Origin: Naegleria gruberi
Taxonomy: Eukaryota
Strand: one strand, 5' to 3'
DNA: 64,000 bases
Assembly (NCBI GenBank): GCA_000004985.1
Contig: GG738848.1
The notes below the pieces were generated by a model. The model did no database searches. It was not told the origin of the DNA and saw only the letters and a program-made list of their open reading frames with translations. Below are positions 2,098 to 64,000 of this stretch, in pieces. Made by a program: the position numbers and the translations under genes. How positions within the stretch are numbered: the first letter of the stretch is position 1; every line of letters starts with the position of its first letter.

Positions 2098-2243
2098 TCC
2101 CTTTGCTTTTTTTATGTGGAAATTTTTAGAAATCCATCAATAAAACTTTTTCATTTAAACACATCATGTTTCAAATTTGGAAAATATTCAAAAATGGAAA
2201 TTATAAAAATAGGTAAATTGGTTCTAGTAATTTTCCAAATATT

Positions 2244-5900: not shown

Positions 5901-8242
5901 ATATCAACACTAGGAAGACAATTAGCAATAATTGTAGGCATATCTTTTGTGGAAGCCACAAGAGCATAATATCCAAATCCAAAACAAGCAACAAATGTTA
6001 AAAAAGAAACTACTACAAATATCAGTACCACTATATACGTTGCCTTGTTATCCCCTGAGGTAGCCAAGGCCATTCTGAACAGACCCTCCTTCCTTACTTC
6101 TGGATCTTCTGAAGCTTCATTAATCAAGTTCAATATTTCAGGAGTCTCTTCCGTCATTTCTTTTGTGGTAGAGTTTTCTGCAGTAAGTTTGTTAGTGCTC
6201 TCCATGACAGACTTTCTAAATGATATGAGTTTTGATGCTGTTGACATGGAAGACAAGGGGCTTTTGGCATTAGAGGGAACAGTTGATGCTGGGCTTTTCA
6301 CTGGTGATGAGATGGTTCCTATTACTTTTCCTTCCTTCCTTTCTTCTTCATCTTCAATCTCATTGGCTTCTTGATACAACTCTTGAGCTCTGATATTGTT
6401 AAATATTACCAGTTCAAGAAATCGTGCATATAATCTTAGAACTGATTTATCGCCACCAAAATCTTTCATCAAATTCTCAAAGGTTATTTCTGACTCAACA
6501 GTTAGTTGGGTAATTCTTCTGTTGATTGTAATAACAGTACCAAAATTGACCATTTCATTGGTCATTTCCTTCCAAAGCGCTTTGTGCCAAGATAGGATTG
6601 TATGGTGTTGTCTTTCCAAGTTGGCTAAAATATGCTTCACATCCACAAAACTAATACCAGAACCTTCACCTGATTTTTTGTGCAGTAAGGTTTCCATTTC
6701 TTTCAATTTTTCTTTCAAAATAAATTCTGTTATAATATTGAGTTTGTGTCTCTTGATTTTCTTCAATAAAGCGAGAGAATATTCATAACAGTTGGTGCCT
6801 TCATTCCAGAAATAAGCGGTTGTCATTGCTGCAGCAACGATATTTTCAGGATAGGAGAAGGAACGATGTTGAGCCACTCCTTTGATGAATGAGATGCAAA
6901 TCTCATTGTCACTTAGACCCAAAGCATCATTTAAAAGTTTCGTCTTTCTACTTGATAATCTAAAGAAAATGTATAATTGTCTAATTCTTTTTTGATCTTC
7001 CAATTCCTTGAAGAAAGAGTAACTTTCTCTTTCAAATAAATGCCTCAATTCTGATATTTGTTCCTCGCTGGCAGTATATTCGACTCCATTTTCCAAAAGT
7101 TTTACCAATGAATTCTCCAAGCAACCAATGAAACCCCTCCTTATGGAATAATATGATACACCAAGATAAATGGTCATTGCTGCAAAACCAATAAAAAATC
7201 CAATTATTGCCAGTCCAATTGATGTACTAATCATTCCTAGTCCAATTTCTAAATCTTGTTTTTGATTAATGAAAGAGGAAATGAGAGGACCTAAACTTGT
7301 ACCAATTTTAGAAAAGACAATACCACTCATAAAACCATTCTCTGATAGAGAATAGTGAGGTATGAGGAAGAAAATAGATGGAACCAAAGTTGTAGAGAGA
7401 ACAATATGAACTATAGCCCTCACAAATACCATATCATTTGGAATAGCATACATGACAATTACTTGCAACTGAGATGTTGCCATAAAGTGAGCAATAAAGA
7501 ATGGACTCTCTGAAATGAATACAGATTTGCTTTTGAGATGGGTATTTGTAATGATGAGATTATACATTGCAGTTACTGGTACCAGTACAACTGCCATAAC
7601 AATACAAGTAACCAAAAGTGCAATATTAGTTGGTGAGTAGCACATTTTGGTTGGAAATCTAGAAAGAGCATACTGATCTATTGTGTATCCTTCAAAGAAC
7701 TTCTTTCCTGACACTCTATCACAATCCACAAATGATGTCAGCAAGTACGGTATTGTAAGATGACCAAAAAAGCAAGCAAAAGCAACAATCTTCAACAAGG
7801 TTCTAAAGGTTTTCATATTCCTACTAGCTGTCATGGCTGCCTTTGCAGTTGTAATAAACAAAACCAAAGCAGCAAGAATAAACACCATACAAACAACTGT
7901 TATTGCAATCATTGCCTCATACGTAATCAAATCTAAGGAAAAAGTAATTGGATAATTCAAAGCTTTTGAAATCCATAATCCATATTCTCCCCATCCATAA
8001 TCACCCATTACTGATATGCTAACGGCTCCATAACATGAATATAATACAACGAGCAAGTTGAGGATGAAATTCTTCCATGATTTCTGAGGTGCTTTGTCAG
8101 TCATGACAATTATTCTATTCAGCAAGGCATCCTTAACTTTGACAATATTCTGTCTCCTCGATAAATAACCTGAAGATGAGGAGGAGCTACTAGAATTATG
8201 AGAAGAACTCTGATAATCGGAGTGATGCCTAAAGTCAATCAT
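2974..8242 (-). CDS. Polytopic membrane protein with PAS domain and class III adenylyl/guanylyl cyclase catalytic domain (about 1720 aa; 3 exons: 8242..3845, 3791..3427, 3361..2974)
   Basis: ATG at 8242 verified, TAG stop at 2974. Exon 1 encodes roughly 10 TM helices, a long cytoplasmic region and a PAS-like fold just upstream of the cyclase. Two introns with GTAAGT donors and AG acceptors (3792..3844, 53 nt; 3362..3426, 65 nt). The spliced product reads LMN|GETFIAEKLPDITCLFTDMIGFTEI...KTIGDSYFCCGG...NV|R|IGINTGQVVGGVIGFKKFAFDLWGDTINVASRMES, the canonical cyclase metal-binding Asp, transition-state N/R and dimerisation motifs. Confidence 0.8.
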
Positions 8243-8730
8243 GATGTAATGGAGGCTTTTTTAAAGTTTTATGACTCTAGAGCAGATTTAACTAACCACC
8301 AATTAAACAACCAATCACTGGCCATCATCTTGTGAGCTTCTCTGTTTTTTAAGCAAGCTTGACATGAGTTGATGGCTGCTGTAAATTATTATTCCCGCTA
8401 TAAAATAAATATAAAATTAAACATCAAAAGTTGGAGATAATTAACAGCAGTACAATTGGAAGTTTGGTTGGCCAAAATGGTCAGGCACTAATTGTGGCAA
8501 AATTGTTCCGAACTGACTCTGTTTTTATATCGTTTTAACATTTTTTTTAATTATTTAATCATGGTATATTTAATATTTAATATTTTAATTTCAATAGATT
8601 GATTTATATTAAACCTTAAATCAATTAATCAATTACTTGTGTCTAATTACATAATTTAATGTTAAATTGAAAAAGCGAATCAACATCCACCTGTCTTACA
8701 TGTCACTAATCATAAAAACACACAAAAAAA
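8243..8730. promoter_or_regulatory. Shared divergent promoter region between the cyclase (-) and the NLR-like gene (+)
   Basis: 488-bp AT-rich intergenic segment between two head-to-head ATGs. A-rich tract immediately 5' of the + strand ATG (cacaaaaaaaATG). Purely positional inference. Confidence 0.3.
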
Positions 8731-11700
8731 ATGTCATCCTCAAATCTTGCTGAAACTGATGCAGCAGCAAGTGACACATCAAAATCATCGTCATTAACAT
8801 CTAACCTCCTTCCTCTCCTGGACCAACTTTCTCAATATGCCCTCGATCTCTCACAAAACAAAATCTTTACCACCTCACTCTGTGATTACATTCAAAGTGC
8901 CTCACAACAAGTTTTCCTCTATGAAAAACTTGTTCAAACCAATCCAGATAATCCCTTCATTGCAACAATGAATTATTCCGATGTTCAACGTGTAGCCGAT
9001 GCCCTTCATGAGGCTTGCATCTACTTGATGGAAGTTCTCGGCAAGGATCCACAATTCTCTCGAAAGGAAGACGCTCAAAACGATTACATGTTTGAGCGGG
9101 AAGATCGTGAACAAGTGGGAATGATGAAGGTGCGTACCTTAAATATCATTGAAACGACGCGAAAAGCCAATACCAACTCGCTCAACGAGGTGCAAAAGAG
9201 AAAAAATTTACAGGCGCAACAAGTCTTTCAATTCGATTTGCACGCTCGTTTGTATAACTCAAAGAATGGTGTTGTTCAACCTGAGGAATTGACCAATGAT
9301 TCGAGAACATTCCACACCATCGGAAATGAAAATAGTGGAGGAAGAGATTCATTGATGAAAAAATTGTTTCACGTCTTGAATAATCAAATTGCTCAACAGA
9401 AGGAACATCAGGCTCAACAACAAGCTTTGGCTGAGAAGGGAAAGGCTGTTATTAGTGCAGCTGATAGTTTGGCTAGAAATTCTGCTCAGAGATTAAAGGT
9501 TATTCTTGTGAATGGTGTTACTGGTGTTGGTAAAAGTAATTTCTGTAATACCATTTGTAGAGAATTATGTGATCAAAATCCTGATACCATTCAAAGAAAA
9601 TTCCATTTGAGATTGAGAGCAAATACTAAATTTTCTCTCACTGTAAGTTTTCAAAGATATTCACAAGTTTTAAATTTATTCTATTTCTAATAACTATTGT
9701 ACTTAACTGATAATGAACTGATTGGATAATTTATTGAATTGTAATAATACTATTTTGGAATTTTTCAAAAATTAGACAACAGAAGCCATGCAATATGTTG
9801 TTCAAACATGGCACGTTGGACCATTGCCAATTCATGAAAAACAACTTCGTGAATTGTATCAACAATCTTTTATTGGTGTGACAACAATTCTCTATTTGGA
9901 AGATCCAAGTAATATCCATCAAATTTTGGCTCTCTTACCAAATATTAAATATTCTCCATCCAGTCGTGCATTTGTTGTCATTAGTTCTAGATCACAATTG
10001 AAATTGGAATTTGATAGATTCTCAAAGGGTTATATTGACCTTGTAACTGACTCTGGTGTCAAACAAATTAGAGATAGAATTGTTGAGCTCGATACTGCCA
10101 ATACTGAAGGTAGTATTGCTGCTGATCAACATGATTTGGATAATTTTTCTGATCACGAATCTGACTTTGAAAGTGATGATGAAAGTAGTGGAGAAAGTGA
10201 TGAGGAAGAAAAGCCAACCAAAGCAGGTAAAAATGACAAGTATCACATTAAAAAGACTCCACAACAGAAAAAGATGGAAAAGGAACTCAAATCAATCTTT
10301 GGTAGTACCAAGAAGAAGACATTTGCCATTCACATTGGTATCAAGGATGACGATGAAAAAATTCCAGTCTTCCAAAGACACTTTGATGTTATTTATTGTA
10401 CATTGGAACCACTAAGTTTTGATGGAGGTGCTGAAATGATGCAACACCTCAACCCACAACTCCAAAGTGACGAGACAAGATCTGTCTCTGCTTTGGCTGA
10501 AAATTTACCAATATTTATCAAAGTTCTCACCAGATCTCAAATGCTCTATGGGGGTGACCTGTCTGATTACTCATTTGCTATTGGTTCATTCATGGATAAG
10601 TATGGCAACACTGATTTCCCACAATTGAGAAAACTTTGTCAAGGTTTCTTTATTGGTATCTGTGAAAAGTGGGACAAACAACTCAGAAATTTTGCACTCA
10701 AACTCTCAATCTTCCCATTCTCTTTTGATGCTGTCAGTGTTGGACTCGTATTGGAAACTCCTCTCAATGAAACATTACGCTACCTCCAATATTTGATCTT
10801 CTTTGGTTTGATTGTTCAGTGTGAACCTGGTAGATTTAGTATGCATGACTTGGTCAGAGATACCTTCCAAATTTACAAGGATGAAGAAATGAGCGATAGA
10901 GATCCACTTAAGAATGATATTGCCGAATGTGAGGAAAGATATGTCCAACACTATTTCAACTTGTTGAGATTATACAATATGCAACATGAATACTCTGGTA
11001 TTATTTACATGCCTGGTCCTGAAAGGTATGACATGGATATTGAAAATATGAAATATGTTGTTGAATTTTTGAAAGATTTGGGCAATACTGACTATGTTGA
11101 TGCTCTTAACACTGGTAGATATATTTTCAGAAATTCAATCTATGCTATTGATAGAGGTCGTCTCTACACATTCCTTGAGAGCAGTGCCGCAGTCGATAAA
11201 CTCCCTGATGATTTTGGAAAGGCCAACTTTTTCGAAGGTTTTGCCATGATTTACTTTGATTTGATGGATCACAAGAATGCCTACATTAAGGCAAAGAAGG
11301 CCCTCGATTTATTAGAGAATGCTTGTATTTTGAGTGATGTACCAAGTGACGAACTCAAACAATTACCAGTACTTCTTCTTGCTGGTGAAATTGCCTTTAG
11401 ACAAAATCAACAAGATATTGCTCTCAGATTCTTTGAAAAGATGGTTACTCTTGCCAATAAGTATGCTCACGACTGGCAAAAGATTACAGTGGAAAAGAGT
11501 AGTGATCCGTTTGCTATCGTACAAGGTTTTGAGGAAAATGAAGTAATTGTCAAGGATATTTTTATTGGAAAGTCTTATATTTGCCAAGCCAAGATTTACA
11601 TGCAAAGAGGTGATGTCAAGAATGGTAAAAAGTTCTTTGAAAGAGGTCTCACCATTATGCAACGTATTTACCATCGTTACCATCCATTTATCAGTGATGC

Positions 11701-15598: not shown

Positions 15599-16615
15599 TT
15601 ATTTAAATAACACTGTTGGAAGTTCCTTTCGCACAGGTTGGAAATCGAGTGACAAGTTTGCGAATTTAGCACACACTCTTACAATTCGTTGATGTTTCCA
15701 AAGCGCGCCTCTGTATGTTTGCTTTAAAATTGCGAACTTTTTGATTCTTCCAATAATCTGTTCAACAACAACTCTTCCTTTACCTAAGACTTTGTTGTAA
15801 ATTTCGCTTTTTGCCGAAAGTTGTTCACCTTTTGGTGCTTTGTCAGGAGAAATACAAAATTCTGCGTTTTGATAAGCTTTGTCGCCTAATACTCTTTCAT
15901 TTTCAGAGAAATGCTCTTTGTTCGTTTGTAACCATTCATCCCACATCTTCTTATCGTGCTTTCTTCCTGGGAACGCATGCGAAATGTTTGCAATTTTTCC
16001 TGTTACTAAAGTAGTCACAACTTGATATTTGAGTGCATGCATTCTCTTTTTGTAAGAATAATACATTTTTTGCTTTTTCCACAAACCTCTTTTTTGCTCA
16101 CGTGACAACCCTTTCTTTTTTCTTCCTGAAGGGTTTTGAATCCTACATTCCATTCCATCAACAACAGCACGAACACGTTGAAAAACACCACTTGCGCCTT
16201 GATTTTCTTCTTTCAACCGTTCCTCTAACTTTAACTCAGGTAATTTTTCATCAACAATTTCTAAAGTTTTGTCAATATTTTCGAAATAACTTGATCTTGA
16301 TACATTCCAGTAAACATTATGAACCAAACTTTTAGGATAACAATTTAAATATTCCATAAAAATAAGAAACCACATTGGTTTAATATCATCAACTAAGTAA
16401 TCATCGTACACACGTTGTAGAATCCATGGCTTGAAGCCAAATGATGCAATAAATGACTTCACGTTGCCAACACGAAAACGAGCTTTGTACTCTTGAAATA
16501 AAGATCGCATTTTTTCGAAAGTACTTTCGAAATTAATTTCGTTCACTTTCTCATTTTCGAAACTAAAAAAAAAATGGCAAAGAAGAAACAAGCTGTAAAG
16601 GAACCATCTTCGCAA
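15599..16615 (-). CDS. Harbinger/PIF DDE transposase (DDE_Tnp_4 family)
   Basis: Conserved blocks ...VVDGMECRIQNPSG..., ...VLGDKAYQNAEFCI... and ...KGRVVVEQIIGRIKKFAILKQ... The tool's start at 16615 is TTG. The first in-frame ATG (MRSLFQEYKARF...) lies about 105 nt downstream, near 16510, and is the likelier start. TAA stop at 15599. Confidence 0.75.
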   Translation of the reverse strand: MRRWFLYSLFLLCHFFFSFENEKVNEINFESTFEKMRSLFQEYKARFRVGNVKSFIASFGFKPWILQRVYDDYLVDDIKPMWFLIFMEYLNCYPKSLVHNVYWNVSRSSYFENIDKTLEIVDEKLPELKLEERLKEENQGASGVFQRVRAVVDGMECRIQNPSGRKKKGLSREQKRGLWKKQKMYYSYKKRMHALKYQVVTTLVTGKIANISHAFPGRKHDKKMWDEWLQTNKEHFSENERVLGDKAYQNAEFCISPDKAPKGEQLSAKSEIYNKVLGKGRVVVEQIIGRIKKFAILKQTYRGALWKHQRIVRVCAKFANLSLDFQPVRKELPTVLFK

Positions 16616-17569
16616 GAAGATGAAGAAGAAAAACCTAAGAAAGCAACCAAAAGATTTAGAGAAGAGGATTATGCTAAATTACAAAAGTATTACTCTGAAC
16701 ATTACGATACTAAAGAGGGAAATCAAGAAGATGTCTTCCGTTCGTTTGGCAAGTTGCATGGTTATTCCGTATCGCAAGTTCAACGTGCACATTACAGAAA
16801 ACAAAAAAAAAGTAATAACAAAAAGAAGAAAAGCAAAACTTCTGATAATGTAGAAAAACAAGAATTTGAGGACAGATTCACAATTTATGCACAAGAAATG
16901 GATGATGAAGAAAATAAGAAGAAGAAAAGAAAAACCGACACCAATCATGAACCGAAAGCAGATGATGAAGATAGCGAACATTCATACGAGACTGAGTCAT
17001 ATGAAACCGATTATTTATCCGATGAAATGATTGTGCGCACACCTTCGAAATTAACAAAAACAGTCAATATCAACGATGAGACAACATCTTTATTTCGTCC
17101 CTACAGATTCGAAAACGCTTCCTATTGTTTTTTTGTCTACAGATACCCAACTTGGACCTCTTTTCTGTTCGATGGTATTGACATGTCAAAGAAAGTGAAG
17201 ACATTTTCCATCATTGTTACAATTCATTCAAGCATTGACAAGAAAGTAATTTCTGATTCTTTCCCGAATTTCGCAAGTGGTTTGGTAGAATTAACTGAAA
17301 GAAAGGATGAAAAATTCACAATTTACGAACCGATTCCGAAAGGTGTTGATGTTAAATCTGTGAAAAGTGGTCTATTCGAATTGCAATTACTAATTGGTGA
17401 TAACAGAGTGTTCATGGTGTTCTTTGAAAAGAAAGTACAAAAGTTCCAACCATCCACAAGTCAAGCTGAGTTTTCGAAATTCTTACTCTCTTCCGGGATG
17501 GCACCAGTTTCTGCCAGAAGTAACACTTTCAGTGCGCCAACACAAGACAAGAAGGATTCTCAAAAGTGA
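16574..17569 (+). CDS. Harbinger second ORF, putative Myb/SANT-like DNA-binding partner protein (331 aa)
   Basis: Divergent to the transposase inside the same TIR-bounded element. Basic/acidic, with N-terminal segment KATKRFREEDYAKLQKYYSEHY...FRSFGKLHGYSVSQVQRAHYRKQKK loosely resembling a Myb-like helix-turn-helix. Harbinger elements canonically encode such a second protein. Confidence 0.5.
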   Translation: MAKKKQAVKEPSSQEDEEEKPKKATKRFREEDYAKLQKYYSEHYDTKEGNQEDVFRSFGKLHGYSVSQVQRAHYRKQKKSNNKKKKSKTSDNVEKQEFEDRFTIYAQEMDDEENKKKKRKTDTNHEPKADDEDSEHSYETESYETDYLSDEMIVRTPSKLTKTVNINDETTSLFRPYRFENASYCFFVYRYPTWTSFLFDGIDMSKKVKTFSIIVTIHSSIDKKVISDSFPNFASGLVELTERKDEKFTIYEPIPKGVDVKSVKSGLFELQLLIGDNRVFMVFFEKKVQKFQPSTSQAEFSKFLLSSGMAPVSARSNTFSAPTQDKKDSQK

Positions 17570-29975: not shown

Positions 29976-30520
29976 TTACATAATAGCACATGTTTTTCTT
30001 TGCTTTTTCTTTTCTTGTTTTGGTTCTGGTTTAGTTTTTCTAATTTCTCTAATTAATGTTCCAAATGCTTCATCCACATTCAATCTCTGTCTTGCTGAAG
30101 ATTCCAATAGTGGAATACCAAGCTCTTTGGCATACATTTTGGCCTTCTCCACTTTTACTGACCTTTCGGATTCCAAATCACATTTGTTTCCAACTAATAC
30201 CATTGGACACTTTTCACAATCTTTCACTCTGAGAATTTGTTCGTAGAATTCGTGAATTTCCTCAAACGACATTTTATCAATGATAGAATAAACCATGAGG
30301 AAACCATCTGCAGATCTCATATATTGATCTCTCAATGCTTGTATNNNNNNNNNNNNNNNNNNNNNNNNNNNNNNNNNNNNNNNNNNNNNNNNNNNNNNNN
30401 NNNNNNNNNNNNNNNNNNNNNNNNNNNNNNNNNNNNNNNNNNNNNNNNNNNNNNNNNNNNNNNNNNNNNNNNNNNNNNNNNNNNNNNNNNNNNNNNNNNN
30501 NNNNNNNNNNNNNNNNNACA
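29976..30520 (-). CDS. Ras-family small GTPase (Ras/Rap-like) with CaaX box CAIM; N-terminal about 58 codons lost in assembly gap
   Basis: Read after the gap: ...IQALRDQYMRSADGFLMVYSIIDK...VLVGNKCDL...ESSARQ...KTCAIM*. An ATG (aaaaaaaATG) sits immediately 3' of the N-run on the minus strand at about 30518-30520, consistent with G1-G3 lying inside the gap. Confidence 0.75.
30345..30517. other. Assembly gap (173 N)
   Basis: Run of N characters in the sequence. Confidence 0.98.
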
Positions 30521-30987
30521 TTTTTTTTGTATTGTTGTTTCGAATAAATTTTGCCTAGTTCCGCACTTAAATAGGTACAAGGAACTTGGAAGTGAGTTGC
30601 TACCATGTTCAGATAGTTCTTAAACAATAAGAGAAATTTGTTCAACAGTTCTTTTGTTATTATTCAGAGTTCCCGAACCAAGACCCTAATATATTTTCCA
30701 ATGACAACTAGCACATTCATATTATTGTCAGTGGTGGAATCTAACAAACGAATGAGAATGTGAACAACTCTGAAATGATTCGTTCAACACTACAATCTAT
30801 TCGCACCCAAAGCAAGGATTAGGAAACGATTCTTTTTGACTTGCTTTTCTCGTCGCACATGTTTTTTGTTTCACACTAATTTTTTGTTTTAGCTTATTTC
30901 TTGCTTTAGTATCTTTCTGGGGTGTGTAGTTTGTAGTGCAATTGAAAATCAATAAATTAACAATTAATTACAACTCAATTTATCCAA

Positions 30988-31503
30988 TTAAAGCAAATCA
31001 GGACACTTTTCCTTCAAACATTTAACCGAAGTAACAGCTCCAACAATATAATTAATCACCAAAAACACCCAAAATACCAAACTCAATGAAGGATTCAAAA
31101 AAGACATCATACTCTTATCAGCCATTAAAGATAACAATTGTACATAAATAACAGTTAAGGAATATTGATGAGCCCATCCAATCAAGTGAGAGAAGACAAC
31201 AGCCAAAACTCCGAATACTGAAGCCAAACAATGGAAATATTGCAATTGTTTTTGTCTCTTCTCATTGATACATTTAGGTGAGGCAAATACAAGAATTCCA
31301 ATCATTCCGACCACCATCAGTAAGCAATCAGGGAAGATGAGAAATAAATCGGAAATTGCATACGATCTAACATTTTGATAACTAGAATCGCTATATCTAA
31401 TAAACCATGCGACCATCATTGCAATATGAGCAGTCAAATAAATTAAACTCATCAGGATGAGACAAACATTGGAGGTGAGTAAGAGTCCACGCATTAACCC
31501 CAT
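30988..31503 (-). CDS. Small 4-TM membrane protein, paralog A (171 aa)
   Basis: ATG verified. Four hydrophobic helices. Shares blocks with the divergent neighbour (LIYLTAHIAMMVAWFI vs MALYHLATIIPWYM; SLTVIYVQLL vs SLTVLYSKVL). Confidence 0.5.
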   Translation of the reverse strand: MGLMRGLLLTSNVCLILMSLIYLTAHIAMMVAWFIRYSDSSYQNVRSYAISDLFLIFPDCLLMVVGMIGILVFASPKCINEKRQKQLQYFHCLASVFGVLAVVFSHLIGWAHQYSLTVIYVQLLSLMADKSMMSFLNPSLSLVFWVFLVINYIVGAVTSVKCLKEKCPDLL

Positions 31504-31995: not shown

Positions 31996-32571
31996 ATGTT
32001 ACTCTTAACTAAAATTACTAGTATTTTCCAAATCATTCTCGGACTCTTCATGGCCTTGTATCATTTGGCCACAATTATTCCTTGGTATATGAATTCATTG
32101 AGTGTTTATGGTACTCATAGTTTGTTCTTAGTGGCGGGAGATTTGTTCATTCTTGGGTTGGGAATATTAGGTGTCTTGATCGGATTCCAAGTTGGAAAGA
32201 TTAAGAATGATGAGAGAACAGCAACTTTCATGTACACTGGTGGATGTCTATTTGTCATTCCAACCATTGCTTGGATTTTAGCTGCTCAAGGTGCTGTTGA
32301 ATTTTCCTTGACAGTTCTCTATTCAAAAGTTTTAATATTCCCAAAGACCATGACAGCACAAACAAAACTTGCTCTCCTCTATTTGGATCCTGCTTTTTCT
32401 TTTGCTTTCATGCTCTTGACAGCTATTGTTGCAATTATTTCACTTGTGGCTGCTGTCAAGAATGTTAAGAGAGCTGTTCCACAACTTTTTGACGGATCAG
32501 GTGTATCAAAGAATGTGGAAACATCTGAAGAACATCAAACATCCTATGTTGCCTTTAACAATAAGCAATAA
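31996..32571 (+). CDS. Small 4-TM membrane protein, paralog B (191 aa)
   Basis: ATG verified. Paralogous to 30988..31503, arranged head-to-head with about 490 bp between starts. Confidence 0.5.
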   Translation: MLLLTKITSIFQIILGLFMALYHLATIIPWYMNSLSVYGTHSLFLVAGDLFILGLGILGVLIGFQVGKIKNDERTATFMYTGGCLFVIPTIAWILAAQGAVEFSLTVLYSKVLIFPKTMTAQTKLALLYLDPAFSFAFMLLTAIVAIISLVAAVKNVKRAVPQLFDGSGVSKNVETSEEHQTSYVAFNNKQ

Positions 32572-32742: not shown

Positions 32743-33785
32743 TTATTTGAAATTATTTTCAAAATCAGCAGCAACCAAATCAGCCAAAGTTCTGGCAGAG
32801 GTTGAGCCCAACTTGGCACGAGTTTGAAGCTTCAATTCAATTGGATAGTGATCACTAACTTCAGCAGCTTGAGCTCCAGTGAGAGAAAGAGCAGTATCGA
32901 ATCTATAAACACTAACAGAGTTGATTTCAAATGCAGCACCATCGGCAATCTTCTTATCAGCCATACCCTTTGAAACAATAAATCTATCGTATGGACAAGA
33001 AGAAGAAGCAACAGTGGTATCCATATCATCAGTAATCAACCAAGTATACTTTCCATTTCTAAATTTGAGAGCAGCAAGTTGTTTACCAGAAACATATCCA
33101 CATCCAGCATTAAAGTCTCCCATCATGATTGTGTTTTCATAGAACTTTTCATTCTTGAGTTGTTCATAAACTTCTTGCATGTGATTGAGTTCGTTAACAG
33201 CATCAGATGGTTTGATGTGACAGCCCATAATTGCAAATTGGACATTCTTCAACTTGGCATCTGATGTGACCAATTGATAAACAAAAGTGAAAGGAGCACG
33301 TTCAAACCAATTGTTACGTCCTTATATTGCACAGTCTTGCCCATCTTGATAAGATTACTATTGAAAATGACACCATATTGTTCCTTTTGAGTTGGTTCCT
33401 ATCTTTCGCTCAAAACATAACTATAACGTTTATCACCTTCACCCAACAATCTAGCCAAAATGTGGAATGCTTGATCAGAGGAATCTCTCACTTCTTGAAC
33501 GAGAATCAAGTCGTATTGAGATAGAATTTTGGTGAGAGCAGAGGCAACATTTTGCTTTTGCATCTTTTTAGTTCCCAATACTTGAATATTGAAAGAACAA
33601 ATACGAATGCCATTGGAAGTTTTACTCTCCAACACTGCAGTATCTTGTAAGGAACTAACTGAAGTCAATGAATAACCATGATAGTGTCTTTGATAGAGAG
33701 CTTCAGTTGATCCGAACATGAATGAGATCATCAAGGAAGCAATTAAACATGCAACAACTACCAATAAAATGTTTCTTCTCATCAT
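32743..33785 (-). pseudogene. DNase I-family secreted nuclease homologue, apparently disabled
   Basis: Signal peptide MMRRNILLVVVACLIASLMISFMFGSTEA (ATG about 33785). Strong DNase I similarity: ICSFNIQVLGTKKMQKQNVASALTKILSQYDLILVQEVRD..., ...MMGDFNAGCGYV..., ...SDHYPIELKL. However, an in-frame TAG (33399..33401) interrupts ...YVLSER*EPTQKEQYGVIF, where homologues read ...SEPLGRNSYKERYLFVY. About 80 nt downstream the homology switches reading frame (...TVQYKD / GRNNWFERAPFTFVYQL) with no plausible intron. Confidence 0.55.
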
Positions 33786-34786
33786 CTTGATGTATGGAGT
33801 ATGAATCACCTATTAAAAATATATAATAATATTGTATGATGCGTGATGATAATCCGTTTACAGAAAAGACGATAAAGACTTGTCTGTGTCGCTGTTTTTT
33901 TACTATGATGAAATTAAGCGTTGTTGTTTTTGCCTTCCAATAATAAAAAGATTGTAATCGAAAGGCATGTAACAAAGATTCGGAACATATTGCGAGTTGT
34001 TTCTAGTTTAAAACTGAACAAAGATGACTCACCTAATATTATTGCAACTGTGGTTGAAAGATAATGGTGTAAATAAATATGAGAAGATGATTGTGCTTTC
34101 CGAAGGTGAGCTTTGCAATGAGGAAAAACTTTAACTGAGATTTTTTAAATCTGGACTGTAGATGGATTGTCGGTTTTTTCAAAATATTATATTGAGGCTC
34201 AAGTTGTGGTAATAATTCATTTTATGCAGGTTGGGCAAATGTGATGATTATAAACCCCGACTGAGCTTACTGTGTTTTCCCTCCAAGTAAGGTTCATGGA
34301 AACTTGAAGGTGAATACGACCTAGAAATTAGTTGCCTCATCAAATGGGTTGCACTCTATAATCCAAATCTCAAAATACAATTGAATAGATTAGATTATTA
34401 TCCAATTTTCTCTCAGGCCTGTTTCTACTTCTTACTGCTTGACAAAGAGATTCTTTGCTGCCTTGTCATCATTATTATCCTCACTCAAATTTTTAATACC
34501 CAACATTCCGAGCAGTGTAAGGAACAAGAAATCTTAAAATAGATCAAGAATAAACGTTTACTATCGATATTATCAATTAAAAAACAAAAAAAATCTATTC
34601 ACCACCACTCTTTTGTTGGATTGTGTGATTGACAAATTTTCTCTCAAACGTTCAAGTTGGATAATTCGTGTTTTTGGAAACAATTTATAGTAATATTACG
34701 AGACTATTTGTACGTTTTTTAATTCGACAACACTTGATATTGATTATCGGATTGTATTATTGGATTATAGTTGATTATAAATTACA

Positions 34787-39581: not shown

Positions 39582-40479
39582 TTACAATTCAAAGACAGTA
39601 TCTTCTTTGTACATGTTATCTGGATCAGTACCTTCAAAAGCAGCTGAAATATAACCCAATTGATTACTCGATATTGGAATTCCATTAAAATTTTGATTTG
39701 AACTATAGTGGGTATGTCCAAAAATCCAATACTTTACAGGATCTTTACATAATTGACTCAAATCTGAGGAGAATGCATGGTTACACAACTTGGTATATTC
39801 ATCCAAATCATCTTTTTCATAAGTTGGTGAACTAACCCCTTTCAATAATGGAGCATGATGAGTGACAATGACAACATTTTTTCCTTGATGCTTTTCCAAT
39901 TCTTCAGTAAGCCATTTCACTGATTGTTCATAAATATTGGCAGTATCATCCACAACTAACTTTCTCTTCTTTTCATTTTCCATAATACTTATCATTTCAT
40001 AATCATTCATGGACTTTCGAATATTTTCATTCAACAATTTCATAATCTCTGTAAAAACTCACCTCTTGAACGACCACTCTAGCCCCCAATGGTACATGAC
40101 TCCACAACAAACATCCAATAAACACAACCTTAACTCCATCAATTTCCACCTCAACCGATCTCTGTTCCAGAAAATGCACATTCTCAAACTCTGCACTCAC
40201 ACTCTCCATTTGCTTCATCACTGTCCAATATTCATTATTATAACACTCATGATTACCAGCCACTACAATTACAATTCTATACTTTTCCGAACACTTCTTT
40301 AGAAAATCCCGATAACTATCCTTCATTGGATTTCCAATATCTCCCGCCAAAACTAAAACTTCTCGTGATGAAGATTTTTCTAGAATGGAGTTTCCGAATT
40401 TGCTCTTGTACTGACTCTCAAAATCATCCAGGTTTCGAAAGTGCTCAATGTGAAGATCACTCATGTATTGAATTTTCAT
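39582..40479 (-). CDS. Calcineurin-like metallophosphoesterase (about 282 aa; exons 40479..40063 and 40013..39582)
   Basis: ATG verified. MPP motifs SDLH (DxH), AGDIGN (GDxxD/N), AGNHE (GNHE), VTHH, GHTH. The two tool ORFs overlap in different frames. Donor ...VVQE|gtgagt and acceptor cgaaag|TCCATGAATG (49-nt intron) join them in frame. An alternative 14-nt 'intron' was rejected as too short. Confidence 0.7.
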
Positions 40480-40680
40480 TTTTTTTATTTTAAAAATCTT
40501 TGCAATATTTGGAAGTTTGAACTTGGTTTACAACACTTTTGTGAGAAACCATAAATGCAAATACGAAACTGAATCCATTATCCTTACAAATTGAAAGACA
40601 ATTTTAACAAGTTAACCATTATTTTTCAAATAATATATCATTATATTTCCATTTTAAGAATAATAAATTTATTAAAAAAA

Positions 40681-50423: not shown

Positions 50424-53400
50424 TTATTTATTACTACTAATTTGCATACTTAAATGTCGATAAACTTCAAATAGATGGCATGTTTTGAATTCATCTGATA
50501 ATTGTAGTAACCATTCATAATCGCCTAATTTGTTTCCTTCTTGTGATTTGGCTCCTATGGCAGGAGTGATTTCAAGCATTTGTTTGAGAGGAATTTCAGA
50601 ATCGAGAGTTTCACTTGTAAAGTAGGAGAGAAGTAATTCTTTCATGGATGAAACTAGCATTGAACAATCGTCTGGAGAGAGGATATTCTTGAATTCATCG
50701 AGTTTTTGAACTAGCTCAGCAGGTAGAACCTTCTTGTACTTGTTGGCAATGGAGGAAGATTCAATAGAAGCACCTGGTGAGAGTTCATTCTCTAAGAGGG
50801 ACCACAAGGATACCAAATGGCATAACTTGACATGGACAATGATAGTATAACTCTTGGCAAGTGTTTGCTTTGTTACTTTTGGATCTACTAGAAGAATATT
50901 TTGAAGGTAGTCAATAATTGACATCTTTTCAACTTCCTCCAAATTGTTGGAACCAGAGATTGCTTGTAAGAATGAAATACACTCTTCAATTTGTCTAATG
51001 CAAGATTGGAACAAATCGAGTGAAGTCTCTCCACCTCTTAACTCTGAAACTATAGCTTGTTTCATATCTGTTGGTAATTCAACTTGTTTAATCTTGGACT
51101 TGAGCTCAGAAACTGGTCCTCCTACTTGGCCAAATCCACTTGAATATCTAGTTTCGTTAAGGAAGGTGAAATTCTCCAATTCCAATTTGATTTTCGGTTT
51201 TCCAGAAAGGTACTTGTTAACAATAAATTGTTCCACTCTTTGATAGTCAAACTTGTAAGAATTTTGCTTGTTGGTATCTTGGTCGAGTTCTGAATCAGTA
51301 ATGACAGGCATCACCTCTTCTTCAATATTAAAACTCACAAGATGATGTTTGCTAATGAAACGGCTAGAAATTTCAATTGGAGAAGATTCAGTGGACGTCT
51401 TGTTCAATAACTTGCCAGCTCTATCAATAATATCATTGTGCTTATCGACTAGGAATTGAATGAGAGCCAATGCACAAATTCCTTCATCTTGCTCATCTGG
51501 AATAGAGAAGGAAAGAGGTGTATCCTTACTCATACTAACATTCTTACACCATGCAGGCAGAGGTAAACATTGGTATCTTTCAATATATTTCCAACTGTGA
51601 TTGAATGATTTAGCCCAACCATCAAAGATCTTTTCAATAGATGCCTTCTCAGCTCCAAGTTGGAAGTGAATTGGTGACAAGGAAAGTGATGACATGAATT
51701 CTGAAAAGACATCTCTAACAGTTCTTGTTCTAGCATAGTGACGATCGATTCTTCTCGAGAAGGTATTGGTTACCAATTTTTGCCATTTCACAACATGAGG
51801 AATATATCTTGTTGGATAGAGTAAATGTTCATTTCTAATAAAGAGGCTCAAAATTGGATACTTTCTTTCTGCCTTATCTGCAATAAAGTATGATTTGAAT
51901 TGATCATAGGTAATTGGTGGCTTGATATTCCAAATTTGACTAATTGGATCAGAAAGTGGGAGAATAGGTTGTTTCAATTCTTGAGGTGCACCAGCTGAGG
52001 AAAAGAGTAGAATATTGGTTATTACATCATTGCCCTTCTTTTGGATGGAATCAAGTTGTTTGTAGTAGAGTTGATATTTCTTTGCAGCATTTTCTGTTAT
52101 CATTGTTACACATCCATTGAAGTGAGTTTCCCATCCAGATCTTCCTGCCTTTGTAGAAATGTCACGACTTGTGTATGGAAGTTTTGGATTGGTTCGTTTC
52201 TTTGTCTCCAACTGCTTGGAAGAGTAACTAAAGAATTCCAAAATATTAAACAAGAGAACACTGGCTTTCTCTTCATTTTGTCCTCCCAACAATTCACACA
52301 GAATACTCCAATCGTTCTTGATATGCCCGAGTAAGAATTCATTGAGATTGTCAACACTTGACATGGTCTTGTGGAAAACTTGTCTGTATTCCTCTTCTCT
52401 TTCTGGGAAGATTGAATTACCAACCAGTAAGAGGGAATGAATAATAAGTCTGATAATTCTGAACGATACTGGAGAAATTTCTCTTACTGTTGCAGCCAAG
52501 TCTCTTTCCTTAAAATGCTCATAAACAGCATAGCCCGTAGGTGCAATATCCTCATCCTGTTTAATCTTGTCGTTGGAGAAGTGAGGAACATGGTCAAATC
52601 CACCAATAGGTAATCCACACTCTGGACACATTGCAAATTCAGTTGGATATCCACAAGAATCGACTACATAAACATGGTTATTTGCACACTTGTACCAGGA
52701 GACAGTGCCATTATCAATTGTATTGATGACTTGTGTTCTGGCATCATCGGTAACACTTGGTAAGTATTTGTCTTTCAATGAAGATGGGTCGAACAATAAG
52801 AGCCACCAAAATTGATCTGTTACATAATTAGATAAGGCAACAGAACAAATGTGGTGAATAACGTGGACGAGTGTCAGATTTTCCAAAGTAGTATTCTCAT
52901 TAAGGAAGAAGAAACTATCCTCATTGAATGCATTGGAGGCAAACTTGATGGTCATGTGTACTTCCTTATCATCCCTCAAGACATGTTTGAGAAGGAAATT
53001 CTTGAGTTTGGTAATATCGATTGGACATGACTGAGTATTGACTTCATCCTCGGAGGTTAAAATCTTGGTGAATTTGTCCTTGTTAGAATTTTCAGAACAA
53101 TAGGACAAGTAGCACTTATCAACTACAGCAAGATAGCACAACTTCTTCAACGAATGAATATCTATTTGTTGTCCAGTATTGATGATTGCTTCTAGGGAGG
53201 CCTTGAGTTTGATAATAGACTCAGTCTTACTGTTGTAATCTCCTTGTTGTCTGAGACTCATAATCATGTCTACACAAGAGGCTAATTCTTCCAATCCATT
53301 CAACACGTGCATGAGTACATTTTGTGGAATATTGTCAGTGTACTTGAAACCTTGCAAGAGTGAAGAGACCCAAGGGAATTGTGGAGAAGCTCTAGAACGG

Positions 53401-56400
53401 AAAGTCTTGAGCAGGAATACTCTACCCTTTCTCTCAACAACTAATCTCAAAAGAACCATTTTGAGGAAGGAAAAGTTTGGTCTCTCAAATAAAGATAATA
53501 ATTGACGAGCTATTGGGCTAGATGAAATAAAATCCCTAATGGAATCACCTCTCTCCACTACTAGAATCAGTCTCTTTGAGAAGGTAGACATGGCACATCG
53601 TATTGCTGCTAGTAAATGGACATCCTTGATAATGTCTTTCCAAGAGGCAACGTCAACAAAATTGTCAGAGACAGATTCTAAAAGTTTAGATAATTGTTCT
53701 TCTGGTATGTTTTGAAGCACGGACTCATAAATAGACAAGTAGCTGATGAGTGTGCTTTGATCCAGAGATTCTGTCTTTGGACTGAGTTCTACTTTGAAAA
53801 TTTCCTTCAACTCTTCATTAACAAGTGGCTTGGTATTCTTATTGAGTAGGAGCTTTTTGAGAATGCTAACTTTGAGGTTTTGTGTTGCCTGCTTCATTAA
53901 TTGATTGAATTTTTCATTCTCTCCCTTGATAAGACCCATCAGTGCTCCAACAAGAGGTTTTTCAATGTCATCCTCTTTTCCAATTCTCCTCACAAGGAAT
54001 TTAGCTGTGAACATTTCAAAGAATCTAGTAATGTTGGTCTTTTTTCTACTTTCATCTGATTGGTTGGTTTTGTCGTTTTGAATATTATCTCCAATCTTGT
54101 TAACCAAATCTAAAAAGTATAATATCAAATCCAAACTACTTTGAGATGACAAACTCTTGGTTTTCATATTTTGCCATAAAATCATGGATATTTCCCTTAC
54201 AATACCGAGAGGAATTGCAATTTCTTGGAGGTACTCCTTGTAGAATTGAAGTTTTTGCCATTTTTCATGAATGTATCCAATATTCTTCAACATTGAACTT
54301 CTTGGGCCACCTGTCAAGTTTATAGTAGTACTGTGAATGAGAGTGATGAGTACTTCTACTGGGCTCTTAATATCTGTCAGTGTTTTGACCCAAATATTTC
54401 TTCTCTGGTTTGCAACAGTAATATCATGAGAGGTTTCAATATTTCTTGGATCCAAGTTATGATAAATAACACTAAAGAGCAGCATGTCAATCTCTTCAAT
54501 GGAAGATATTCTCAATGAAGGAACAAGAAGTTTTTGAAGGAACTTTCTCTGAAGAACAGACTTTGGGAAGGTTTCAAACAAGACATAATATGATTGAAGT
54601 CTTCTCTCCTGTCTCCAATAGAATGAAAGTATTTTAGCAATATTTGATCCTTCAGAAGGGTCTGCATCTAACATCTTTTTGATAATCTCATATTGTACCT
54701 CATTAGTTAACACTGTACACTGAACACCACAGATACACATGTAATCATAGAGGAAAAATTCAGAATATTCTCTTGGCAAGTTGTTCATGAAAGGATAGAT
54801 CATGTCAATATGCTTTTGTAAGGCCTCATAAACTCCCAATCTAGAACTTTCACATACACTTCTCCAGCTATGTAGATTTCTACAAACTTCGTAACTGAAA
54901 GGATATCTTGCTTGGAAAATTCTATTGTTATTACCATCACTCTTGACTTCTATTGGTTTCCATCTGAGTAGCTCAGCCATCGAAGATATTGTCTGTTCAT
55001 TTCGTGTTAACATGTGATTCACTGAAGGTCTCTTCAGGTCATCCAAAAGTTTAATCCACAAGTTTGTGCCTTCAGTTCTGTTGGTACTCTTGTATTCAAA
55101 GAAGAGTCTCAAATTGTCGTTTCTATCAATTTCAGCCAAAAGGAATGTAAATGATTTGATTAATATTCTCTCGACACAGTATTGAATAGCTGAGTGGTAT
55201 GTATTCACAACAAGGAAGTATTCGTTAATGTGGTTGGCTACATAGGTTGAGTAGAAGTTAATTTGATTTTGAGAAAAGTAGTCATGACAAATCTCCAAAA
55301 CCTTCTTGTTAATAACTTTCCAACATTCATCAGAATCAATGAGTTCGTTTGTTCTTGAAATTAAAAGAGTAATGTCATTAATTTTGGTATTGAATTTTCT
55401 TAGCATTGCCAGAGAGGTACGGAAGTTACTCTTAATAACTTGTCTCACATTAGTAGTTTGAATTTGTTCGGTGAATGGTCTGTTCAAAATTTCATAAATT
55501 GTAGTTTCTGTTGGTCTTATTTCATCAATAAATGCAAACTTCCATGGAATGTCAAATTCAATCAAGTGCTGACTGTTAATTGATTTTCCTGGAACAACAT
55601 TGATTAAGAGTAAAATGTTCTTTCCGACACTCTCACTAGGTGAGATACACTTTCTGTGCTTTTGGATTATAAACTTGGTTTGGTTCAAAAGGTCCAAATT
55701 CATATTTTCACATTGCAAAACAAGCAAGTGTTGTCCATTTGCTGAGGTAATTTTCTTTCCAAAGAATTGTTTTACAAGCTCTATTAATTCCATCTCTGAT
55801 TTGAGCTCAGCCATAGAAACAACAGAATGGTATTCTATGCTTGCTCCAATCTCTCTGGATGCCTGAATCAAGTTATCAATATTAATAGATACAGATGAAT
55901 AGGTAAGTAAACAAAGTTGGAAATATCCATAATAAATTAAGGAATTTGAAGACAGACCATTTTGAGATTGCTCTTGCAAAGAACCGAGCAAGAAATGAAG
56001 TAAATGAGGAAGGTCTCTGTGCTCTTGCTTTTCAAAATATGTTTTCAGATATTCCCTTGTTCTACTATTGTTGATAGAGGACATTCTAACCACAGCATCT
56101 GCAGTTGTAATCCACAATAGAGCATTCTTACAAATATCCAACAAGTAGTCATGGAGAGAAGGATCCTCAATTTGCTTGGTATCTAGTGATAAAACAAGCG
56201 ATTGAAGGAGTGATTTGTGAGTATTAACAAATGGTTTTTCATCATCACCAAAGGTTGTCTTGACCCACGATTGCAATCTACTGCACAAGTTCTTTACATT
56301 AACAGAGGCAGATTTGTCAAAGAGATCATCTCTGTGAAGTGTTTGCTTCTCAAATCTGTTGAGGAGTGGCTTGGCAAGTCGTGAGTAGGCATCGTCCTGA

Positions 56401-59400
56401 TCCACAATAACAATAACTCTAAAGTTCTTGTGAACAGAACAAATTCTACTGTATGTACCAAGTGAAATACCAACCACTCTATTCTCATCATACTCTATGT
56501 ATTGCAAATTGAACAAGTCGTAGAGACTTTCATATAATTGTTCACAATTTACCAAGACTACTGTTTTACCAGTTGACATGGCATTCTTAATTCTTTGAAT
56601 ATCCATACAAACCTGAAGTTCTTTAGTACTGTTAGGGAAGTTTGGACCAAAGACAACTTCTGCTTTATCATATGCAAGTAATTGTTTAAATTCTGAGAAG
56701 AGAATAGAGAGGGCAGCATTATTCTTTGTGAGTAGCATTAAATGTCTTGCCTTGGTATCGTTCAAATTTTCAGAAATATAATCCAACTTTGACTTCCTAT
56801 TGCTGATAATATTCATACCAACACAGGAGAAGAAGATATTCAAAACTCGAAGGAACTCTTCATTATTTGATCCTCCAAAGTTTCTGGCAAGAGCATCTGT
56901 GAGTAGCTCTGGTGAGAGTGTACCGTCAAAGTTTCTGTTAATAAACTTGACAGTGTGGTAAAAATCTCTCAATCCGAAAAAGTCCTTTCTTTGTTGACCA
57001 TTATATACATCATGGTAAGCCTTGGCCAAAGAATAGAGAGTACTGTCTAAATGCACAGAATTTACAATACCAGACAAGGTAGTTTTGAGTTCAAATGTTG
57101 AAGGTGAAGGTCTGGTCAAATAGACTGCTCTATTGATAAGGTTAGGATCCAATGTCCAGTTAGAAAGACCAATCACAGAGACAGAGCAATCCTCTTCCAA
57201 TTCCTTATTGACAACTTTGAGTGGATGGGAAGAACTATGTTCTAACAAGCCAACCTCGTTCAATAAAACTATGGCAATAGAATTTGGAGAATTCTTCTGA
57301 TATCTCTTGGCAGATTCAAAGCAACTCTTGACGCTCTCAGGTGTGGAAATTTGTGAACATTGATAAGTGAATATTTCAAGAGAAGGCAATGAGCGTAAAA
57401 AACTATTGACACTGGCTGTTCCATTGAGATTAGTGCTCAAAATCTCTAAACTCAATGACTTGGAAGAGCCACTCTTGCCATTGATGAATATTGGAATCCT
57501 ATTCAGTACACAAACAAGGGTCATGAAAATATTTTCTCGCAGAGCATGATTAAGTGCCACTCCCTTTGGAATGTTCAAGTGCATCGTGTAGTATCTTTGT
57601 TCTTCTGTGAGAGTATTGATAAAGTCACCCTTTTGATAGGAAAAGTAGGAAGCAATTTTGCTTCTTGAAGAGGTGAATAAATCTTCCAACTCCTTCACAA
57701 ATTCATCACGCTTGGAACTCAATCTGTGGTAATAACAATGTCCAAGAGAAAGTATGATAGAGTTCTTGATAATAAAGTTTGATTCCTCTAGGAAAAAGGT
57801 AGGATCAATACCATTTCTCTTTGAGAGTGATTGATAAAAGCTCTTGAATAAGTTAATGCAACGTTTAACATCTCTCAGATTCACAGCACTTCTTTCCATA
57901 TAAACCTTTCTAATGAATGATTGAGAGGCAAATATGAGCTCTGTAAAGCAATCAAAGAAGAGTCCAGACTTTCCGATATCCTCAACATTGATTTCCATGA
58001 GTAGAATGGCTCTAATGTATAACTGTTCAATAATAGGATTCAAAGAGCCAAAGTTAAATACATGATCCAAAATAGAGACAGGCATTGGATATACCTTATA
58101 GATAAGACATTGTGAAAAAACTTGAATATCCAAACCTGTGGTTCTTTGGAGGGCTCTAATATTGTCTTTCAAAATATCAGATTTTTGACCAGAGGAACCA
58201 TATTCAATGTCTGTTCCAGCATATCTTCTCAGTCTGTATGGATTACAGGAGGCAACAATCTTCAAATTTCTAGGTAGCACCTTATTATGAACACAATTGT
58301 CACAAATTAATTCTTTAAATAATCCTAAATTATTAGAGGTGTTTACCTTGTCAAAGAAGGCTATAATCTCCTTCTTTGGATTGAGTCTGGCTTCTGCAAT
58401 GAGCGGATTCAACCAATTCAAAATATCATTAGATGTGTGACCTTCATTCACAGCAAATCTCTTCAACTTTATACCAAGAACAGAGCACAAGTATTTGGTT
58501 AGTTCTGATTTACCAACACCACTATCACCACAAAGAATTGTAGGTAAATTGTATTTCATCTTGTGATAAATCATCAATACCTTGCTCAAATTATCTACAG
58601 TGAGAACGTAATTATTGCTGATTTTCTTTTCATTGGTTTCATCCTGTTTCAAGCCAGCAACATTTCTAATAATTTCTTGAGCCCTATCATGAGATAAATC
58701 TCTTGGGGTCTCCAAGTCTATACCATTACATGAAAGAGAGTATTTTAACTCTTCATTAAGTTCGAGCTTGTCAGTATTGATACCAATAAGATCAATTCCT
58801 GTTATTTCATTAATGTTACTTCTATAGAAAACAACTAGAGGATGTTGAGATGCTTGCTCCTCCCACTTGCTTAATCTATGTTCAAACATTTCGACATATT
58901 GGAGAAGTAAAATCTCAGTGTATGGTTTTCCTTCATACTTCTTAGCAAGCGAAATAATAAAGTCCTTTTCAACAGAAATAGCTGTTAAATCCCTTGCTGA
59001 CTTGATCATTAAATCAATCATGGCGTGTTTGAATAATTGCATGCTTCCTTCCATAACACAATTTTTAAAGCAAACATATCTAGAAGTGCTCAAAAATTGC
59101 CCATACAAGAATCGTACAAAATTGTTCACCACAGAGAAGGAGGCATTGTCAGGTTTGAATCCAGTGTACTTGCACAACAGCTTGAAGCAAGCTTTCAGAC
59201 TCAAGTCTGGTGCCTTTACAGGATCAAAATCTGGTACGCTAGGAGCTGCATTCTTGAATACATTCTCCTCGAAGGCTTTCAAAAATTTACAAACATATTG
59301 TACCTTATTATCATCTGTGCACATAATATCAATACTATCATCTTCCATGTTAATAAGTTCATAGTTTACCAATTCCAGACTTGATTCATCTGTAGTTATT

Positions 59401-63965: not shown

Positions 63966-64000
63966 TCCCTGTGATGATGTTGGGAATATAAATCCACTAT

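Follow-up and report, generated by a model that had tools for sequence, protein, structure and literature searches.

An interrupted DNase I-family gene of Naegleria gruberi, broken or mis-sequenced, and its mis-modelled public annotation

In a 64,000-nt stretch of Naegleria gruberi contig GG738848.1 (the window), the minus strand from 33785 to 32743 encodes a full-length DNase I-family protein, not in one frame (direct reading). We are confident that the gene is intronless, belongs to the DNase I family, and is broken or mis-sequenced, rather than split by an intron or recoded. As assembled, it cannot make the enzyme, because a single 88-nt patch holds an in-frame TAG, the loss of a conserved arginine, and a one-base deletion. 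A first-pass annotation of the sequence had proposed that this is either a recently decayed gene or a case of base-calling error, and that pair of options is supported: an intron, stop-codon reassignment, and recoding all fail. In short, nothing here is out of the ordinary: the gene is disrupted or mis-sequenced, and its public annotation is mis-modelled. The main value of the analysis lies in the correction of that annotation, and it touches no open question.

The gene and its family

The window is nuclear DNA of Naegleria gruberi, with a G+C content of about 34% and standard-code open reading frames (ORFs) of 4524, 1723, and 1508 codons. The best database match to the gene is a "predicted protein" of N. 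gruberi of 311 amino acids (P0001, which is EFC49301.1 = XP_002682045.1 = NAEGRDRAFT_62569 = UniProt D2V1G3). The parts of the gene are as follows (a slash within letters marks a splice site).

32743..33785, minus strand: whole DNase I-family gene, interrupted (NAEGRDRAFT_62569), from the ATG at 33785 to the TAA at 32745..32743
33699..33785, minus strand: putative signal peptide or membrane anchor, MMRRNILLVVVACLIASLMISFMFGSTEA, read by eye
33402..33785, minus strand: 5' coding segment of 128 sense codons in frame A, ending in YVLSER (direct reading)
33427..33321, minus strand: 107-nt "intron" of the public model, donor C/GTTATA and acceptor TATAAG/GA, judged spurious
33401..33399, minus strand: in-frame TAG at the conserved Leu of the S-E-R/P-L-G-R motif (TTA or TTG in relatives)
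33385..33401, minus strand: dense anomaly, a stop followed by EPTQ in frame as against LGR(S/T)(N/A/S)S in relatives (alignments)
33381..33383, minus strand: GAA, the intact catalytic Glu codon (equivalent to Glu78 of bovine DNase I; kEqy / kEry in alignments)
33317..33313, minus strand: frameshift site GTAAC (GTAAAC, Val-Asn, in the closest relative; DNA alignment)
32743..33315, minus strand: 3' coding segment in the -1 frame, from NNWFERAPF to DFENNFK and then TAA (direct reading and alignments)

The DNase I-type homology that had been reported in the first pass was borne out by profile and structure searches. The repaired protein matches Pfam PF03372 (Exo_endo_phos) over residues 63-314 (E = 1.1e-11; 45.4 bits versus a curated cut-off of 24.5), with profile positions 1-225 of 225 covered, and each unrepaired fragment falls singly below the cut-off. 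Against the PDB, the repaired translation matches 7kiu (DNase gamma) and 9fju/1dnk (DNase I) with E = 2.6e-45 over residues 59-322, which span both lesions. All five PDB matches (E = 2.6e-45 to 7.4e-38) are to DNase I or DNase gamma, and the named database matches are animal deoxyribonuclease-1 or gamma.

In bovine DNase I numbering, we take Asn7, Glu39, Glu78, His134, Asp168, Asn170, Asp212, and Asp251-His252 to be the catalytic and metal-binding residues and Cys173-Cys209 to be a disulfide. In the family these columns show 95-100% conservation, and the repaired N. gruberi sequence keeps every one of them. The equivalents of Asn7 (in FNIQ) and Glu39 (in QEVRD) lie in the 5' segment, 33402..33785, according to the alignments; the 3' segment carries those of His134, Asp168/Asn170, Asp212, and Asp251-His252, along with the Cys173-Cys209 pair. 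The column of the Glu78 equivalent (E372) is 97% conserved in the family (60 relatives). An open frame able to yield the enzyme is what the gene lacks, given the TAG at 33401..33399 and the -1 shift at 33316.

In a neighbour-joining tree, the gene forms one clade with three orthologues:

L001 3636-4514: closest relative (P0002), on JGI metagenome contig MLSBCLC_10100321, a single uninterrupted ORF
L002 8001-9050: N. lovaniensis C9374_008011 (P0003), a single uninterrupted ORF
L003 8001-8999: N. fowleri (P0004), a single uninterrupted ORF

All three read SERLG(R/K)S..SKEQYG...TIQ(Y/F).D..(N/G)WFER without a break. The gene is the N. gruberi member of this set, a heterolobosean "group A" of DNase I-family nucleases. 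Group A genes are intronless and appear to encode a secreted or membrane-anchored metal-dependent endonuclease; the activity and the secretion are putative, and the hydrophobic leader was recognized by eye (the N-termini of the N. lovaniensis and N. fowleri orthologues are comparably hydrophobic).

The damaged patch and the rest of the gene

Past the TAG, frame A reads on as EPTQKEQYGVIFNSNLIKMGKTVQYKDV, and from 33315 the homology switches to the -1 frame (NNWFERAPFTFVY...) and reaches the TAA at 32745..32743. The frameshift lies 82-86 nt past the TAG, in agreement with the earlier observation that homology continues through the stop and jumps frame about 80 nt later. It amounts to one A missing from an A run (relative to the closest relative), and frameshift-aware protein-to-DNA alignment placed a one-base deletion at 33316 with all six relatives and at all penalties. 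All of the damage falls within the 88-nt patch, 33401..33314, out of 1043 nt, and the gene has no further stops beyond the TAG. We found no local repeats or RNA structure at the patch.

The region around the TAG can be read in two ways. At normal frameshift penalties, the preferred reading is that the TAG is a plain T-to-A substitution accompanied by EPTQ divergence. If 33401..33385 is instead shifted by one base, it reads (L)GTNSK, which is near the closest relative's G-R-S-N-S-K. In that case the patch would hold three indels, and the TAG is perhaps not a point nonsense mutation but the product of a -1/+1 indel pair: TTA would have become TA at 33401, and there would be a surplus base in AAAAGG at 33388..33383 (both relative to the closest relative's DNA). 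Aligned by hand to that DNA with the -1/+1 pair and a 3-nt deletion, the region has 23 matches, 3 mismatches, and 3 gaps, as against 17 matches, 10 mismatches, and 1 gap when MAFFT keeps it in frame (counted by hand). In protein alignments, the three-indel reading is best only at frameshift penalties of at most 12 (with the closest relative) or at most 8 (with most others). As low penalties also create a spurious indel pair with P0006, a member of the second paralogue group (group B), we consider the three-indel reading plausible and no stronger than that. A free 5-mer test of the TAG region gave only 3/5 identities. Neither reading preserves the conserved Arg of the LGR motif, and the in-frame one loses the Gly too (the Gly is 97% and the Arg 90% conserved in the family).

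Outside of the patch, the gene looks functional, judging from its sequence. Among the 51 conserved columns (those conserved in at least 85% of 60 relatives), 45 are kept, every catalytic residue included, and where the gene departs outside the patch, the replacement is mostly conservative (F/L, F/Y, L/M, F/Y, N/G). With 6 departures, N. gruberi stands towards the upper end, at rank 53 of 61, but within the range of 0-14 (median 3) for relatives that presumably work; N. lovaniensis and N. fowleri each show 5. Since synonymous sites are saturated when proteins share only 47-62% identity, we used relative-rate tests rather than dN/dS. Tests against the closest relative with group-A outgroups gave 34:27 and 30:26, which are not significant, while distant outgroups gave an excess for N. 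gruberi of 32:17 (p = 0.03) and 32:13 (p = 0.005). Any acceleration of the N. gruberi gene is mild at most, and purifying selection either still acts on the gene or ceased only very recently. We also considered an old, decayed pseudogene and rejected it, as the lesions are confined to 88 nt and the conserved columns are largely kept (45/51); a very recent pseudogene would still fit.

Error or mutation

Our best single guess, to which we give about even credence, is that the draft assembly has a local consensus (base-calling) defect and that the organism's own gene is intact. We make this guess because the damage is tightly clustered, because it lies partly in mononucleotide runs, and because the other ~960 nt look functional. 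The probability of clustering within 88 of 1043 nt is about 0.02 for three independent events (3r^2 - 2r^3) and about 0.16 for two. The robust indel and both putative indels are length changes in short mononucleotide runs. It also favours an error that this is a draft assembly with a scaffold gap 2.9 kb off: the sole N run in the window (30345..30517, 173 N) lies ~2.9 kb from the patch. Against an error, the rest of the 64 kb is clean, and the patch, at 2.9 kb from the gap, is not at a contig end. The surroundings of the patch are not a generally poor region, since the long ORFs of the window are intact. Nor is the pattern that of a simple read tail: a dense stretch (33401..33385) is followed by 68 clean nt and then by one deletion. 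If the TAG is a plain T-to-A substitution with EPTQ divergence, then it looks more like mutation than like a Sanger artefact.

The other possibility is that the lesions are real and mark a young unitary pseudogene, or a null allele assembled from a heterozygous or polyploid strain. Taken by itself we hold this to be a serious contender that falls a little short of an even chance; real recent inactivation is nearly as likely as an assembly error, and we lean slightly to error. The lesions could have arisen by a local complex mutation around 33401..33385 and a one-base slippage deletion at 33315. Several observations point this way. The stop is accompanied by loss of the conserved Arg in the LGR motif (and of the Gly too, if in frame). 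N. gruberi-specific substitutions are in consistent, mostly non-significant excess, and N. gruberi ranks high for departures at conserved sites. Sequence quality around the patch is good. Finally, N. fowleri and N. lovaniensis each have both a group-A gene and a gene of the second paralogue group described below (group B), and no group-B paralogue was found among the annotated proteins of N. gruberi. However, neutral decay should scatter its lesions, and here all of them lie within 88 nt, with ~960 nt free of further stops and the catalytic residues kept. With the appropriate, group-A outgroups the rate tests show no significant excess, and 2-4 independent hits in one short patch of a constrained gene would be unlikely (P ~0.02-0.16).

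Searches for independent N. gruberi sequence, by exact look-ups of the ubiquilin ORF and of the 311-residue annotated protein, returned no match. The homologue search contained no near-identical fragments of the gene, and a metagenome scan yielded no close relative, only a 32%-identical locus. We also asked if a second frameshifted gene in the window was a sign of poor assembly; the candidate, a set of overlapping ORFs at 40527..39582, proved to be a single gene with an ordinary 49-nt GTGAGT intron.

The public gene model deals with the break in another way. Its exons, 33785..33428 and 33320..32743, translate exactly to the 311-residue protein, and if the annotation were correct, then 33427..33321 would be a genuine 107-nt spliceosomal intron and that protein would be made. 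The modelled intron does have GT...AG ends, and its removal restores the frame to give XP_002682045.1 exactly. We nevertheless find this very improbable. The "intron" swallows both the TAG and the frameshift together with 36-37 conserved codons, among them that of the catalytic Glu78 equivalent. Lesions aside, its interior encodes residues that are colinear with the relatives' protein, and its DNA aligns to an exon of the closest relative. At this site the relatives read GKRY.Y.(L/V)SERLG(R/K)S..SKEQYG...(I/V)K..KTIQ(Y/F).D..(N/G)WFER, and the orthologues from N. lovaniensis, N. fowleri, and the metagenome relative have no intron at the position of 33427..33321. Also, the donor GTTATA differs from the GTAAGT or GTGAGT of the supported introns in the window, albeit in a small sample of five introns, which includes the following.

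3426..3362: GTAAGT intron, across which cyclase profile positions 101->102 run on
3844..3792 and 9643..9775: GTAAGT introns, supported by homology or frame
40069..40021: GTGAGT intron, whose removal restores VVQE/SMNDY as in relatives

The claim in the first pass that no viable intron exists holds for any other choice of splice sites as well. A TAA at 33325..33323 in the target frame (frame B) means that the only usable acceptor is the AG at 33322..33321. With this acceptor forced, the frame-restoring GT donors 5' of the TAG give introns of 107, 284, or 305 nt only, and all of these cut the conserved core, so there is no GT-AG intron that removes the TAG, fixes the frame, and spares the core. 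It is unlikely that the XP_002682045.1 protein exists or functions as a nuclease. XP_002682045.1 / D2V1G3 is mis-modelled and deserves a flag as a disrupted gene or a sequence error.

Last, recoding, in which the TAG would be read as an amino acid and a programmed -1 frameshift (or mRNA editing) would restore the enzyme, has a negligible chance: that homology runs on through both lesions is all that favours it, and against it TAG terminates the cyclase gene, reading TAG as sense scarcely extends the ORFs, and there is no slippery motif, no structure beyond that of shuffled sequence, and no interruption in the orthologues. Specifically, the shift site GAC GTA ACA (33320..33312, read directly) contains no slippery heptamer X XXY YYZ, and folding of the RNA around and downstream of the shift is not better than that of shuffled sequence (z = -0.15 and +1.38). 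The three orthologues have no stop or shift at the lesion sites, so nothing is conserved there.

Stop-codon reassignment, which the first-pass annotation had named as evidence that would overturn its view, was sought: with TAG as sense, the window has 34 ORFs instead of 32 and 18101 codons instead of 17594 (+3%). TAG is a genuine stop in the cyclase gene, just as had been stated, where the last exon ends in DEDSLRL-TAG (2976..2974) past the end of the Guanylate_cyc profile, and the ATG of the following gene is at 2855, 119 nt beyond the TAG. The long standard-code ORFs, the negligible gain in ORFs, and the TAG that ends the cyclase gene together speak against reassignment. A ciliate-type code or tiny introns, which the AT-rich sequence and the TAG might suggest, were likewise rejected, on the statistics of standard-code ORFs and the identity of the organism as N. 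gruberi. The break would then lie outside of normal expression, with no real intron, no reassigned stop, and no programmed frameshift involved.

Relatives, neighbouring genes, and known enzymes

The heterolobosean clade contains two paralogue groups: group A (this gene and its three orthologues) and group B (P0006-P0009), which has a hydrophobic C-terminus. The family is carried by three Naegleria species and Willaertia, and there are relatives in other protists, in Myxococcus, and in spirochaetes. The first-pass description of DNase I-type enzymes as characteristic of animals and rare elsewhere was overstated. Given these relatives in Heterolobosea, other protists, and bacteria, the presence of the gene is unremarkable, and DNase I-type nucleases, far from being an animal speciality, form an old family of two paralogue groups in Heterolobosea. 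We found nothing relevant in the literature on DNase I in Naegleria.

No group-B paralogue of N. gruberi was found among the annotated proteins in the homologue search, and its absence would fit a N. gruberi lineage that is losing the DNase I family. If the break is real, it marks a lineage-specific loss of a secreted nuclease in N. gruberi. The combined reading, in which the break is real and N. gruberi has no other DNase I-family gene, seems doubtful to us. If it were true, then N. gruberi, a non-pathogenic laboratory amoeba, would have lost a family of secreted nucleases still present in its pathogenic and thermophilic relatives, with possible consequences for feeding on bacterial DNA or biofilms, or for the degradation of neutrophil DNA traps.

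In the closest relative, the DNase gene is followed directly by a cytochrome P450 gene (L001 3636..6439, which corresponds to 33644..32743 and 2064..437 of the window). The P450 counterpart in the window (139..2136; p450 E = 1.5e-65) is on the same strand, ~30 kb from the DNase gene. This suggests residual synteny between the two, interrupted by an insertion or rearrangement of ~30 kb. N. lovaniensis and N. fowleri have other genes (GST, DUF547, and tubulin) next to the DNase gene than the window does.

Adjoining the DNase gene in the window are two divergent genes for small multi-pass membrane proteins of 171 and 191 amino acids (30988..31503, minus strand, and 31996..32571, plus strand). Neither has a Pfam match; their similarity (for example, SLTVIYVQLL / SLTVLYSKVL) suggests that one is a paralogue of the other. 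The N run at 30345..30517 sits inside a Ras-family small GTPase gene (29976..30554, minus strand). Ras profile positions 62-161 were matched downstream of the gap, and with the gap inside the gene, its N-terminal half is missing from the assembly.

Farther away on the minus strand, a large gene (2974..8260) with TPR, PAS, and adenylate/guanylate cyclase domains has the short GTAAGT introns 3844..3792 and 3426..3362, and the gene that starts 119 nt downstream of its TAG (2976..2974) has a YccF domain. At 15599..16678 (minus strand), the DDE_Tnp_4 domain of an ORF (PIF/Harbinger-type transposase; E = 4e-29) points to a copy of a DNA transposon. A giant ORF of over 4524 codons (50424..63998, minus strand) runs past the end of the window; with its RZ-type zinc finger and a weak match to dynein-like AAA, it has an RNF213-like architecture. 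A calcineurin-like metallophosphoesterase gene (39582..40527, minus strand) has a 49-nt intron, GTGAGT...AAAG (40069..40021). We did not find a near-identical annotated protein for it; the best match is a N. gruberi paralogue that is 52% identical (P0092). The public model of that paralogue seems to retain the homologous intron in frame as extra residues. The metallophosphoesterase gene may be unannotated, and its paralogue may be a second mis-modelled gene.

Three comparisons place the gene among known systems. First, its own public record, XP_002682045.1 / D2V1G3 ("predicted protein"), has the same locus, start, and stop, and both exons are identical to the window, but the record drops 107 nt of coding sequence as an intron and so lacks 36-37 residues of the core, including the catalytic Glu. 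Second, the group-A orthologues share the architecture and the C-terminal tail of the N. gruberi gene at 47-62% identity; unlike it, they are uninterrupted. Third, vertebrate DNase I and DNase1L3 (1dnk/9fju and 7kiu) have similarity over the full length, and all of the catalytic residues, the Cys173-Cys209 pair, and a hydrophobic leader are common to both sides. However, the identity is only ~35-38%, and the N. gruberi gene does not have the Cys101-Cys104 loop of the vertebrate enzymes. Its N-terminal region is longer than theirs, and the C-terminal tail K-L/I-G-S-x-S-x-x-T-L-A/S-D-L-V-x-x-D-F is common only to the heterolobosean group A and is not found in the vertebrate enzymes. Also in contrast to vertebrate DNase I and DNase1L3, the N. 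gruberi gene has a broken frame and is without the conserved Arg of the LGR motif.
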